In this document: in pieces, positions 6,563 through 10,458 of the stretch | How positions within the stretch are numbered: the first letter of the stretch is position 1 | How the letters are laid out: each line of letters opens with the position of its first letter | Virus record (IMG/VR): IMGVR_UViG_2700989286_000012 | Source: a virus | Lineage: Duplodnaviria > Heunggongvirae > Uroviricota > Caudoviricetes | Reading direction: 5' to 3' (one strand) | Length of the DNA stretch: 10,458 nucleotides | Position numbers and translations under genes: made by a program | Notes under the pieces: model-generated | The model's input: the letters and a program-made list of their open reading frames with translations, nothing else | Databases searched by the model: none | Told to the model about the DNA's origin: nothing

Positions 6563-8327
6563 AGTTCCCTCCGTTCCAGACGTTCACATCCAGGCCATGC
6601 TGTGCGGTATCATCCACATCAATACTGCGCGCCCGCCAGCCTTCAGGGGCCACAAGCTCCACCCGTGCGGCGGTTTTCGCGGTGGCCTGTCCGCCGTTTT
6701 CGTCACTGCCGCCACGCAGTTTCTGCCAGGCCTGCGTCAGCCAGCCCCCCAGATAATCACCGAGATAGCTGCCCACCGTGGAACCAATGGCAACCCCGAC
6801 CGGACCAGCAGCCGCCCCCAGCGCGCCACCGGCGATACTTCCGGCAAGGGAACCCACGGCACCGGCTTTATCGGCTGCACTGGCGCTGCTGTCCAGCAGT
6901 ACAGGAGCCGCCATGGCACCGGCCCACAGGGCACCACCACCCAGCCGACCGGCACCACGGAACAGCCCGGCAAAACGCCCCAGCCCCATGCGGTTTCCGG
7001 CCGCCGTTAGCAGACCACCGGCACGGCTCATCATACGACCGAAGAAGCCCTGTTTACCGGCACTCTCCGCCAGTTGCTCACCGGCAGTCACGACGGTCGT
7101 GACACCCCGTCCACGTCCGGGGCCGCGTTTTTTACGGCCGCGCACGGTTTTGCCGTCACCGCTGACCACCACATCCCCGCCACCTGAGGCCAGGCCACCC
7201 GCAGGCCAGTTGGTGACCAGCACGGGCTGAACGGCAGCCGGATTTACCCCGGTAAGGAAATTCAGGAACCGGCCAGCGCGTCCGGGCTGCGTTCCCGGTA
7301 CAGTGGTCTGCGGTTTGCGGAAGGGCGACGTCAGCACGGAGGTCATCGCCATGCCATAGCGTAAGGGGGTTGCGCCGAGACGTAATGCTCCCGTCCCCGC
7401 AAACCTGAGCACCTTCAGCGCACGGGAGGCGAGATACATATACATCAGGTACTTTGCGGCGGTCTGCGCACCCTGACCAATGCGATCCAGCGCATCGCCA
7501 TAACCGGCGTCGCGCAGTGCCTGAAGCGTTTCCCTGACTTTCTGAATGACCCGGTAAAAGCCGGTCGCAGCGTCTCTGGCATACTCAAATCCCTGATTCA
7601 GGGCTGAGGCCGTCTGTGTGGCCAGCTTATCCTGTAAGCCGCTTTTCTGTGCCGCATCAGCATAATCCAGAAAGCCTTTCAGGCTCTTTTTCAGGCTGTC
7701 AAACGGTCCCTTTGCCATCACCTCGCGGGCAAATCCGTCCCAGACATCGCCCATCATGGACGTCATTCCCGTCCAGGAATTCATGGCGTTTTTCTGGGCA
7801 CCTTTTGCCTGTTCGGCCATCACCTGAAATAACAGGCGAATGCTGTCCGGTCCCAGTTTTCCTTTCTCGCCTTTCTCACGGATGATCTTCTGGTTTACAC
7901 CCAGCTTATCGGCCAGCAACTGGTAAACGTTAATCCCGTATCCGGTCAGAATATTGGCGTCCGCTGCCTGGATACTCTGGCGGGCAAACATCTGTTTGAG
8001 TTGCAGGGACGCACCCTGTGCATCTGACAGTGACCAGCCGTGATAGCCGCCCTGATCCTGAAGCATGGTAATAAAGCGACGGGCTTCCCTGTCACTCATA
8101 CCGAACCCGCGACTGGAGGCGTATTCCTGCATAACCCCCGCCAGCCCCCAGGTGGTGTCTTTGGCGTTCTGTACCGCCCAGGCTTTCACTGCTTCCGTTT
8201 TTGCCGTATCGCCATGATTAATGGCGTTGAGACGCAGAATATAGTTCTCCATCTCTGCGGCCGGGCGGATAAAGGCTTTATTAAACCCGTAGACCGCAGC
8301 CCCTCCCGCCAGCATCCCGTAAAGGTT
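6549..8327 (-). pseudogene. Tail tape-measure protein, 5'-truncated remnant
   Basis: Long ORF with a Gly/Ala-rich C-terminal region (GGALGAAAGPVGVAIGSTVGSYLGDYLGG) and an RGRKKRGPGRGRG stretch typical of tape-measure proteins. The frame is open up to 8387, but sequence above about 8330 is transposase coding DNA read in another frame. Neither the GTG at 8387 nor the ATG at 8315 has a recognisable Shine-Dalgarno. How much of the N-terminus is missing is unknown. Confidence 0.65.
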
Positions 8328-9456
8328 GCTTATCCGAGTAATACAGAAACGGTTTGCCGTGATGGCGAATGCCGTGCTGTATGGCACCGGCTACGGCGAA
8401 AACATTTTCAGCCAGGTCAAGGCTCCAGCCCACCACAAAGCGCGTGCCACCGTCGATAACAAAGGTCACTTCCGGTGCAAATGGCCGACCGTGAACCGGG
8501 TGTGCGCATTTCAGCTTCATGCCGTGACCGTCACCAATCCAGACATAATTCACCGGCATTTTTGACCAGTCGCGGCGCGTGAATCCCTCAAGCTGGCGGT
8601 ATTCACTGCCGGTCACCCGGCCTTTTTGTTTCACCACTTCCGGCAGTTTCTTCATTGCGCGGCGAATGGTGTCATAAGACGGCATGATATCGAGCATATA
8701 AGGCTCATCAGCGTGCCGGTGCTGCCATTCAGCGACAAAATCCTCGTAAGCCTCGGTCATTGGTCGGCCGTTTGACTGGCGATACTGCGCCAGAAATTCG
8801 GGCAGCCAGTTAATATCTTCGGCTTTTATTTCCTGGCGCTTACCCGGTGCCAGTAAAAGCAGGCGTTCAGCGGCGTTCTGCGCCTTGTTAAAGGCCGCAA
8901 TCCAGCGTTTCAGCGTGATTTCACTTAACGCGCGGCTGTTTCCCTTTTTGGCGTTCGCCGTCTCAACCATTGCCACAATGCGCTCGTCCAGCTGCGAACG
9001 TGCCAGGTTGTCAACGATAAACCGGATAGCCTTCGCACAGCTGAAACCAGGTTGTTGCGCGACTTTCAGAACTTCGCTGACGATCGCGATTCGTGCATCA
9101 GCCACCTGGCGCTGGTTTTCAGTCAGGGCATTAAGGCGTTCGACCATCAGTTGTGGTGATCCGCGATATGCCTCCACCGCATCAACCACGGCAGGCGAGC
9201 GTCTGGCCTTTGTCACCACTGGAGCCGGTGATTCATCGACTTTTTGAGTCATCAGTTGCAGGGCGTAGCGTTCACGTAATGCCTGCTGCGTCACTTCAGG
9301 TAAACAGTCGATGCTGTATTCAGTTGCTTTAGAGCCTGAGCGACGACGGGAACAACAGCTTTTCCCTTGTACGTAACGTTGTAATGCCTGGCGAATACCT
9401 TTTGTTGTAGCAGGCATTCCGGGCGCGCCAATCAGTTCTTTTGCAATGACATACAT
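8281..9456 (-). pseudogene. Mu A-type DDE transposase, N-terminal 391 codons only
   Basis: The N-terminus (MYVIAKELIGAPGMPATTKGI...SGSKATEYSIDCLPEVTQQAL) parallels the MuA enhancer-binding domain as I recall it. WIGDGHG aligns with the MuA first catalytic Asp region (INGDGY) and FLYYSD with the second Asp region. The frame then runs 14 unrelated codons to a stop at 8281, so the catalytic Glu and the C-terminal domain are missing. The start ATG at 9456 sits 1 nt after the ner stop. Confidence 0.8.
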
Positions 9457-9457
9457 A

Positions 9458-9706
9458 TCATGACGCCTTTCTCATATAGCTCTTAACCTGGTATCGACTG
9501 GGCCAGATTTCTTCAGGCGATACCCCAAGAGCATCAGCAATTATTTGCTGATACGGTCGGCAAGGAGTACGTAATACGCTTTTCAGCGAATCCCTGCTGT
9601 AACCAGCCTTTAAAGATAAAGAGCGCAGTGATAAGCCAGCCATGTGTAAGCGCGCCTTGATGATTTCAGGCGGCCAATCGTGATCTGAAACTTCTCTTCT
9701 ACTCAT
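9458..9706 (-). CDS. ner: Ner-like DNA-binding protein (Ner/Nlp family)
   Basis: 82-aa ORF with the DW...GLSLRSLS...QQIIADALGVSPEEIWPSRYQ pattern, which closely resembles Mu Ner and E. coli Nlp as recalled. It lies immediately upstream of the transposase gene and divergent from the repressor. A GAGGA Shine-Dalgarno precedes the ATG at 9706. Confidence 0.85.
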   Translation of the reverse strand: MSRREVSDHDWPPEIIKARLHMAGLSLRSLSLKAGYSRDSLKSVLRTPCRPYQQIIADALGVSPEEIWPSRYQVKSYMRKAS

Positions 9707-9726
9707 ACTTCCTCTATTCTAAAAAG

Positions 9727-9765
9727 TTACCCGCGCGGATATTCGTGCGGATATCTGTACGGGTA
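9727..9765. promoter_or_regulatory. Candidate operator cluster in the ner/repressor intergenic region
   Basis: Inverted repeat TTACCCG (9727..9733) / CGGGTAA (9759..9765) enclosing two direct copies of GCGGATAT (9736..9743 and 9748..9755) at a 12-bp period. It lies just downstream of the candidate early promoter -10 element. Confidence 0.4.
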
Positions 9766-9766
9766 A

Positions 9767-9796
9767 ATAATAGAACAAACAAAAGAACCAAATCAA
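9767..9796 (-). promoter_or_regulatory. Candidate early promoter (Pe-like) driving ner and the transposase
   Basis: On the - strand, -35 TTGATT (9791..9796), an 18-nt spacer and -10 TATTAT (9767..9772), with a predicted start near 9760. Identified by eye only. Confidence 0.3.
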
Positions 9797-9873
9797 GGTA
9801 TTTTGTTCTTTTTATTCTTTGCGGTGTTTTTGTTATTAATATCAATAAGATAAATAAAAAGGAACCTGAGAGC

Positions 9874-10458
9874 ATGAACATGAAAAACAGTTCTTTTCTC
9901 GACGAAGGAAAAGAACCAGTGATCGAACGGATTTTTCGTCTTGCAGAGCGTTACAAATCGAGAAGTGAGGCGGCTAGAGCATGGGGAATAAACGTTCAGA
10001 CATTGCAGAACTACTACAAAAGGAGAAACAATCAGCCGCCACCACAACCAAGAAAGCACCATCTCCAGAACATTGCAGAAAGAGAACATGTATCTATGGA
10101 GTGGCTGGTCAATGGTTATTGTGATGAGCCAAGCATGAAAAAAGAACCAATTGAACAAACAAAAAGAACAAAAAAACAAAGAATTGATGATAGTGATTCC
10201 ATCATCATGAGGGCGTGGGACTCGCTAACTTCATCTGAACAAGAGATTTTGTCCAACTTATTGATCAGAAAAGGGGCCGAACTACTAACCGTTTTGCTTG
10301 ATACAGATATTCAAAAACTGCACTCATTGAGCGGAGTCAAAAGAGCACTAGCATTGAGTCTACAAGAGTTACCCGATGATACTGTAAGAGAGATTTATGA
10401 AGAATGTGAAGCTAAGGTTAATCATTTAAATGTAACCCAGAAAAAGGCTGGTGCGTAA
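9874..10458 (+). CDS. Putative prophage repressor, positional equivalent of Mu c (HTH DNA-binding protein)
   Basis: Transcribed divergently from ner across an AT-rich control region, as Mu c is. Likely start is ATG 9874 (MNMKNSS...) with AAGGA about 10 nt upstream; ATG 9880 is an alternative. The N-terminal segment SRSEAARAWGINVQTLQNYYKRR looks like a helix-turn-helix. The upstream in-frame extension to 9745 runs through the operator region and is rejected. The family is uncertain; it does not obviously resemble Mu c. Confidence 0.65.
   Translation: MNMKNSSFLDEGKEPVIERIFRLAERYKSRSEAARAWGINVQTLQNYYKRRNNQPPPQPRKHHLQNIAEREHVSMEWLVNGYCDEPSMKKEPIEQTKRTKKQRIDDSDSIIMRAWDSLTSSEQEILSNLLIRKGAELLTVLLDTDIQKLHSLSGVKRALALSLQELPDDTVREIYEECEAKVNHLNVTQKKAGA

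Follow-up and report, generated by a model that had tools for sequence, protein, structure and literature searches.

A predicted lysis–lysogeny switch of Mu-like build, with operator sequences of its own, between ner and the repressor gene of an Escherichia coli prophage

The DNA examined here (10,458 nucleotides, IMG/VR virus record IMGVR_UViG_2700989286_000012; hereafter the window, meaning this whole stretch) is, to judge from its genes, a Mu-like Escherichia coli prophage that carries an internal deletion. A ner-like gene and a phage repressor gene lie divergently in it, separated by a spacer of 167 bp (9707–9873). We propose that this spacer is probably the lysis–lysogeny switch of the transposable prophage, built like those of Mu and D108 but with operator sequences of its own. 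The proposal rests on the anatomy of the region, on its conservation among relatives and on the linkage of each set of repeats to one protein. In the mechanism that we envisage, in which binding assignments, promoter starts and the role of IHF are predictions, an early promoter (Pe) would read leftward into ner and the transposase gene. The Ner-like protein would sit as two closely packed dimers on a dyad at 9727–9766, about +1 to +34 of Pe, where it would damp Pe and stand in the way of any transcription running rightward to the repressor gene. The repressor would occupy GAAC half-sites at 9772–9821, in the Pe spacer and on both sides of the −35 element, as well as a second cluster at the start of its own gene (9890–9916), and would turn Pe off. 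An IHF-like block between these clusters (9840–9852) may bend the DNA as in Mu.

The first-pass annotation of the window, made by a model from the letters alone, had placed a divergent control region with direct and inverted repeats between ner and the repressor gene. This placement held. The ner product is a Ner homologue by its matches to HTH_35 and to the Mu Ner structures 1NEQ/1NER (at about 9e-9), and its divergent neighbour belongs to a family of phage repressors (phrog_3037), the RefSeq names of its matches including ‘phage repressor protein’. As in other elements of this kind, the HTH_35-type ner comes first in the early operon with a Mu-type DDE transposase gene directly next to it (HTH_Tnp_Mu_1 and phrog_310 transposase, 1.2e-115), and the repressor gene diverges from ner over a short spacer near the left end of the prophage.

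Relatives were fetched with an alignment of the repressor. Viral contigs, a single Cedecea genome and diverged prophages of E. coli together yielded 24 distinct ner–repressor spacers; the Cedecea locus was the only one to come from the scan of genome contigs, the diversity coming from viral contigs. Some of the counts below refer to 19 non-redundant types out of this set. Compared with the window, the 24 types had Ner proteins 52–100% identical and repressors 35–99% identical. The distance from the ner ATG to a set of GKEP codons in the repressor gene was nevertheless 219–223 bp in all 24, and the alignment was nearly gap-free; the architecture is therefore rigid. The repeats noted in the first-pass annotation were conserved across these prophages and kept fixed positions, the opposite of the random placement that chance features would show.

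On the ner side, two copies of GCGGATAT with a start-to-start spacing of 12 bp had been described within an inverted repeat TTACCCG/CGGGTAA. TTACCCG was found where it had been placed (9727–9733). The GCGGATAT pair and its spacing are real, at 9735–9742 and 9747–9754 instead of 9736–9743 and 9748–9755, and CGGGTAA also exists, at 9760–9766 and not at 9759–9765. These elements make up one 40-bp dyad with 15 of its 20 symmetric positions paired in the window. It occupied the same position in 24 of 24 related types, with the pattern TTAYCC-N4-GGATAW-N6-GGWTATC-N5-GGRTAA, and every type had 12–17 Watson–Crick pairs among the 20. Changes on both sides were seen at seven pairs, for example TTATCC...GGATAA versus TTACCC...GGGTAA and GGATAA...TTATCC versus GGATAT...ATATCC. 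Most relatives have the two inner elements in inverted orientation (GGATAA...TTATCC), and the L005 pair makes up a perfect palindrome of 20 bp, GGATAACCGCGCGGTTATCC. Their appearance as direct repeats in the window is owed only to the near self-complementarity of the core GATATY; a direct-repeat arrangement is thus not what the family as a whole displays.

Three independent module swaps (the window against L003, L005 against L022, L013 against L027) linked this dyad to one of the two proteins. In each pair the Ner proteins were identical and the dyad identical or different at one base, while the repressor group and the type of the right-hand half-sites changed, with the breakpoint at the Pe −10 element. 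As the dyad stays with Ner through three swaps, it is part of the ner module and not of the repressor module, and it is most likely the Ner operator. The swaps also suggest that immunity modules are exchanged as units bounded at the Pe −10 element and spacer. The ner gene, dyad and Pe −10 of the window are identical to those of Sp18-type elements, and Sp18-type records and about 100 genomes carry the other immunity module, with a repressor about 43% identical and ACC-type half-sites. In all three pairs the breakpoints, which correspond to window positions 9767–9790, fell in the Pe −10 element and the spacer.

The first-pass annotation had raised the possibility of a distinct operator specificity, and the left cluster, as a conserved candidate Ner operator unlike those of Mu and D108, fits it. 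Neither the ANYTARCTAAGT motif of Mu nor the CCGTGAGCTAC motif of D108 was present within 9707–9873, where the conserved hexamer is GGATAW. A comparison of single Ner residues with the hexamer variants (GGATAT versus GGATAA) gave no clean rule. In the crystal structure of the Ner-like protein EnrR, two closely packed monomers occupy a compact 6-bp palindrome, CTATAG (PMC9023278). By analogy, this suggests that each GATATY core could hold one such dimer.

On the repressor side, the perfect inverted repeat of AAAAGAAC (9781–9788) and GTTCTTTT (9805–9812) with a 16-bp spacer was found exactly as first noted. Its two arms are members of a larger array that brackets the Pe −35 element. The type of half-site goes with the repressor. 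Ten distinct types with the predicted recognition helix TL[QN]NYYKR[RK], the window among them, contained two to four AGAAC/GTTCT pentamers each, versus none in seven types with the helix TL[NK]SYF[KR], which have AAWACC/GGTWTT and GATCAC in their place. Half-site type thus followed the predicted helix in 17 of 17 types, and three further types with intermediate helices had mixed half-sites. The GAAC array is most likely the repressor operator, and the right-hand inverted repeat is indeed built of repressor-type-specific half-sites. It is not, however, the operator unit. The unit of the family is an arm, 7 bp and an arm, centred on the −35 element, as in L027 (ATCACGAAAAATACC-AATTCAA-GGTATTTTTCGTGAT) and L013 (AACATAAAAAGAACC-TGTCAAA-CGTTCTTTTTATGTT), and GTTCTTTT belongs to a tandem array, as its next half-site; L009 has GTTCTTTT-T-GTTCTTTA in the place of the window's right tandem half-sites.

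The half-site that faces 9781–9789 in the window is of the other type and serves as the cognate arm in L003-, L005- and L027-type relatives; CCAAATCAAGGTATTTT is exactly common to the window and the ACC-type L003. In an alignment of five sequences a AAATCAAGGTATTTT block had appeared invariant with clean co-variation of two arms, and was given up when the larger set showed it to vary and several types, including the window, to have mixed arms. A DnaA box-like sequence, TTATCCACT, seen in L005 and L022, was dropped since it is not conserved in the family.

The start of the repressor gene holds a second cluster of half-sites. At its position, GTTCTTT was present in 10 of 10 GAAC-type relatives versus 1 of 5 distinct ACC-type ones. 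In the ACC-type module of L003 (1900–1945; E. coli JE86-ST05) the ancestral start codon of the repressor gene has been lost and the annotated start is a downstream ATG. This cluster is consequently non-coding there, and the type-specific GGTATCTTT still stands at the same position.

The two repeat systems meet at Pe, the only promoter-like site of our scan, which lies on the ner strand (TTGATT 9796–9791, an 18-bp spacer, TATTAT 9772–9767). The best −35/−10 pair was found at the same place in 19 of 19 types, with 7–10 of 12 consensus matches; among the other 18 the spacer measures 17 bp in 17 and otherwise 16 bp, and the −35 hexamers are TTGATT, TTGACA, TTGACT, TTGAAT or TTTACG. Across types TTAYCCG follows directly after the −10 hexamer. 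The −35 hexamer is at the centre of the repressor palindrome and the −10 hexamer adjoins the dyad; transcription would start near 9760 and run leftward. This conserved promoter-like site is thus flanked, judging by sequence only, by repressor-type-specific half-sites.

How far the repeats exceed chance was assessed with 2000 dinucleotide-preserving shuffles of 9707–9873. Palindromes of 40 bp in which 15 or more of the 20 positions pair arose in 4 shuffles, exact direct repeats of 8 nt or longer spaced 10–13 bp in 38, and perfect inverted repeats with arms of 8 bp or longer and no more than 30 bp between them in 252. The right-hand 8-bp inverted repeat, taken alone, is within chance expectation. 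AAAAGAAC occurs seven times in the whole window, every copy within 9435–10169, versus 0.23 expected, and Lys-Glu codons account for at least three of the seven. The non-chance case rests mainly on fixed-position conservation in the 24 distinct related intergenic regions. Two AAAAGAAC copies, 22 bp apart, lie at 10140–10169 in a Lys/Glu-rich linker of the repressor (KKEPIEQTKRTKKQR) and are probably a codon effect; this linker is missing or different in other repressor types.

Several observations weigh against the switch as proposed. Because the types share ancestry, counts such as 17 of 17 make them look more independent than they are. Physical adjacency alone could account for the linkage of the dyad to ner. 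The operator of the window is a ‘hybrid’, the arm symmetric to 9781–9789 belonging to the other class (GGTATTTT). The second cluster is coding sequence, and its right arm consists of the universally conserved GKEP codons, kept for protein reasons. The repressor promoter is weakly placed and was not located with confidence, both candidates having 6–7 of 12 consensus matches. Finally, a plus-strand RNA spanning 9722–9880 was predicted to fold into three hairpins with −43.4 kcal/mol (z = −5.1), which would suit a function at the RNA level.

The first-pass annotation had read the right-hand repeat and its spacer differently, with the 8-bp inverted repeat as the repressor operator unit and an IHF site at 9791–9803 bending the DNA between its arms as in Mu. 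We consider this rather doubtful. In its favour, AATCAAGGTATTT at 9791–9803 has one mismatch to the IHF consensus WATCAANNNNTTR, 12 of 19 types retain the match with no more than one mismatch, as they do AATCAAGGTRTTT, with an A-rich tract 5′ of the block, and the Mu operator does use IHF. The same bases, however, form the best Pe −35 in every type and also part of the other-type half-site. Moreover, 6 of the 19 types have three or more IHF mismatches and yet a retained and improved −35, TTGACA or TTGACT with a lost IHF match being listed for L013, L022, L024, L025 and L026. The conserved TCAA core is thus explained more simply by a promoter function. Nor are IHF-consensus matches (at most one mismatch) enriched in the whole window (9 versus 6.2 expected, not significant); the inverted repeat is as frequent in shuffles as given above, and the arm-N7-arm unit of the family does not correspond to it.

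In Mu the IHF site is between operator clusters and not on the −35 element: the operator/enhancer comprises two clusters of sites with the IHF site between them (PMC3145075), and in the Mu sequence we found TATCAACGCGTTA at 947–959, with its centre some 75 bp upstream of the Pe start. The conserved block at 9840–9852 (family form TWTCAATNNNWTR), some 87 bp upstream of the start predicted for Pe, appears a better IHF candidate and a better positional analogue of the Mu site than 9791–9803. It has 1.13 bits per column versus 0.66–0.71 in its flanks, and at most one IHF mismatch in 9 of 19 types, the match being perfect in L011, L026 and L030. The IHF motif is low in information and matches alone prove nothing.

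Alternatively, the dyad could be a third repressor operator, equivalent to O3 of Mu, in place of a Ner site, or be used by both proteins. Its position would let a bound protein block both promoters, and O3 and the Ner site of Mu overlap in the same place. But the dyad holds no GAAC or ACC-type half-site; it is identical or nearly so in elements whose repressors are about 43% identical and whose half-sites differ, and it varies when Ner varies. A repressor site there seems improbable, and we retain the dyad as the candidate Ner operator.

Could the palindromes act instead as RNA hairpins in the repressor or ner leader, in stability, processing or attenuation, and not as protein-binding DNA? Besides the fold mentioned above, 87.5% of symmetric cells are pairable if G-U is allowed, pairs changed on both sides exceed those of shuffles, and G:T mismatches outnumber A:C ones (43 versus 25). 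Any DNA palindrome folds as RNA, however, and symmetric co-variation is equally expected of a site for a dimeric protein. The arms are conserved as sequence, in the form of GGATAW hexamers, beyond what pairing would call for. The predicted Pe start falls inside the right arm, so that the ner leader cannot form the full hairpin, and its fold is weaker (z = −2.35); on the other strand, the dyad has no established promoter ahead of it. No Rfam family scored above its gathering threshold, with sub-threshold trpB and CrcZ matches only. We regard hairpins as the function of these repeats as highly unlikely.

That the repeats are chance features of an AT-rich spacer has next to no probability: neither the 8-bp inverted repeat nor the IHF match is significant in the window, but the fixed positions in 24 distinct relatives, the rarity of the dyad in shuffles and the excess of AAAAGAAC refute it for practical purposes. 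The features of the proposed switch are collected in Table 1.

Table 1. Coordinates of genes, predicted sites and conserved blocks in and around the ner–repressor spacer (positions in the window)
Feature	Position	Strand	Basis
ner-like gene, 82 amino acids, WP_001310454.1	9458..9706	-	Pfam HTH_35 2.5e-19; PDB 1NEQ (Mu Ner) 9.4e-9; EnrR 7F9H 1.6e-8
ner Shine-Dalgarno GAGGAA	9709..9714	-	read from sequence; position conserved in alignment
Most conserved non-coding block TATTCTAAAAAG	9715..9726	.	1.72 bits/column over 19 types
40-bp dyad, candidate Ner binding site	9727..9766	.	TTACCC 9727-9732, GGATAT 9737-9742, GGATAT 9749-9754, GGGTAA 9761-9766
Predicted Pe -10 TATTAT	9767..9772	-	promoter scan; -10-like hexamer adjoins dyad in 19/19 types
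Left candidate repressor half-sites AGAAC 9772-9776, AAAAGAACC 9781-9789	9772..9789	+	in Pe spacer; helix association, alignment
Predicted Pe -35 TTGATT; also core of IHF-like match 9791-9803	9791..9796	-	promoter scan; 19/19 types
Other-type half-site GGTATTTT (reverse complement of AAAATACC)	9797..9804	-	at symmetric-partner position of 9781-9789
Right tandem candidate half-sites GTTCTTTT 9805-9812, ATTCTTTG 9814-9821	9805..9821	-	inverted-repeat search, alignment, helix association
Proximal candidate repressor promoter, -35 TTCTTT 9815-9820, 17 bp, -10 TAATAT	9838..9843	+	alignment; below scan threshold; weak
Conserved block TATCAATAAGATA, second IHF-like site	9840..9852	+	one mismatch to WATCAANNNNTTR; between two half-site clusters
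Repressor Shine-Dalgarno AAAGGAA	9858..9864	+	conserved AAAGGAAC about 9 nt before ATG in most types
Repressor gene, 194 amino acids, WP_001056416.1	9874..10458	+	phrog_3037 ‘transcriptional repressor’ 1.5e-58
Second half-site cluster GTTCTTTTC-N9-GAAAAGAAC, candidate Mu O1 equivalent	9890..9916	.	perfect 9-bp inverted repeat, 5′ end of repressor gene

The scan gave no plus-strand promoter above threshold, and consensus matching and the alignment gave two weak candidates for the repressor promoter. The distal one (TTCTCT 9692–9697, 17 bp, TATTCT 9715–9720) has the form TTCTYT-17-TATYCT at a fixed position in 15 of 19 types and would face Pe over the dyad, with an overlap of about 33 bp. The strongly conserved TATTCTAAAAAG block may accordingly be the −10 element and start of a rightward repressor promoter facing Pe, the translation initiation region of ner, or both. 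In the case of the proximal candidate, about half of the types have a TAWWWT hexamer ahead of TCAAT.

The C-terminal half of the repressor matched phrog_7148, the Mu c family. Its N-terminal DNA-binding domain, for which the matches were weak ones to HTH_23/psq only, is predicted to be a classical helix-turn-helix, and a comparison of the repressor with PDB sequences gave no useful match. The transposase starts with a PF02316 domain and matched phrog_7148 at residues 3–76. In Mu, the c repressor and MuA have a common N-terminal winged-helix domain and compete for the operator/enhancer. In the PHROGs comparison the N-terminus of Mu c matched the phrog_310 transposase and that of the window repressor did not; BLASTP of the repressor against the window transposase returned E = 2.5, with no homology of the N-terminal (I-alpha) domain. 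The transposase N-termini are 93–99% identical across the three operator-type swaps. The pairing of a helix-turn-helix repressor with a MuA I-alpha-like transposase, and of near-identical transposase N-termini with two half-site types, suggests that the Mu-style sharing of sites by repressor and transposase may be uncoupled in this family, a reading to which we give a low probability. Were it so, any transposition enhancer would have to lie in sequence that is not type-specific, namely the dyad, CCAAATCAAGGTATTTT or the common AAAA-NN-ACC frame, and the ‘hybrid’ operator of the window could represent superposed repressor and transposase sites.

The remainder of the window carries Mu-type tail and baseplate genes on the minus strand (tape measure, DNA circularisation protein, gp44/P, gp46, baseplate J and gp48) and an N-terminal fragment of the Mu-type transposase gene, on the same strand (8281–9456). 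In an intact relative the transposase, B ATPase, kil, gam and mor come after the ner–repressor region, and in the relative L001 a host gene begins about 260 bp beyond the repressor gene. Homology to the early region of the intact relative ends at 8330, inside the transposase gene (about codon 375), directly next to the tape-measure gene; the part from the transposase C-terminus through the tail tube region has therefore been lost. The junction near 8330 (8281–8390) was found in none of 5426 complete E. coli genomes, each half matching separately, and is either a rare deletion or an assembly join. The window ends at 10458, exactly with the repressor stop codon, and the IMG/VR contig IMGVR_UViG_2609459799_000018 (L008), whose repressor is 99% identical, ends likewise. 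Because the window stops there, the left end of the prophage (attL) is outside it.

Among complete E. coli genomes, 89 have the ner–repressor region with an identity of at least 99% and about 100 more have a diverged version of it; a related region is carried by 194–195 of 5426 (about 3.6%). The present analysis thus offers a sequence-level map of the immunity switch of the Mu-like prophages that this share of the genomes contains, many O157:H7 and other Shiga-toxin (Stx) strains among them; some of these Mu-like prophages sit inside Stx phages. It contains a candidate Ner operator with a new specificity, the GGATAW hexamers, together with at least two classes of repressor/operator specificity. 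Since these classes appear to be exchanged as modules with breakpoints at the Pe −10 element, the map predicts which prophages are heteroimmune. The natural chimeras can be used to study how Ner-family proteins and Mu-type repressors read DNA.

We finally compared the region with characterised switches. In the literature searched, no published operator analysis of a window-type or Sp18-type switch was found. Blastn of the region against phage genomes gave no match to Mu or D108, the matches being the Mu-like inserts of Stx phage records LC727881 and LC727895 (annotated ‘inserted Bacteriophage Mu-like phage’) and weak ones to phages of Pseudomonas and Yersinia; this excludes direct homology with the characterised operators at the DNA level. 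The Ner sites of Mu and D108 were read from their GenBank sequences.

The organisation of the region is that of Mu in most respects. In both, the repressor and ner genes diverge and the transposase gene comes next, repressor sites (predicted here) overlap the early promoter, and a Ner site (a candidate here) lies between this promoter and the start codon of ner. Both have two clusters of half-sites containing A4G/CTTTT, one of which reaches into the start of the repressor gene (TTGAAAAGTAAC...TAGAAAAG in Mu), with an IHF-consensus site (a candidate here) between the clusters, and the C-terminal halves of the repressors are related. The facing promoters proposed here have a parallel in the promoter regions annotated at 991–1028 and 1063–1101 in the Mu record. 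Ner of the window is 40% identical to that of Mu. The Mu Ner site, just downstream of the annotated Pe, is AGCTAGCTAAGT-N6-ACTTAGTTAAAT, two 12-bp units 18 bp apart, in contrast to the GGATAW 40-bp dyad of the window; the 12-bp phasing that the first-pass annotation had ascribed to Mu is thus not that of its Ner sites. Unlike in Mu, the repressor N-terminus is unrelated to the winged helix of Mu c and MuA, a domain that the window transposase keeps, and the candidate IHF site is in the opposite orientation and about 12 bp further from Pe.

EnrR (PDB 7F9H/7F9I) belongs to the same fold family as the Ner of the window, and its CTATAG resembles the GATATC/GATATT of the inner hexamers. It is, however, a global binder of AT-rich DNA that counteracts H-NS and not a phage switch protein, and the sequence that it recognises differs.

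D108 is heteroimmune to Mu and has a different site in the same architecture. As predicted for the window, it has a palindromic Ner site between Pe and ner, starting 23 nt upstream of the ner ATG (21 nt for the window dyad), and the two Ner proteins are 39% identical. The D108 site spans 30 bp, with perfect arms of 11 bp on either side of an 8-bp spacer (CCGTGAGCTAC-N8-GTAGCTCACGG), whereas the candidate site of the window has four hexamers over 40 bp and an unrelated sequence. The region is, in sum, an ordinary relative, not yet described, of the known Mu/D108 switch, and it leaves the known picture of the Mu switch unchanged.

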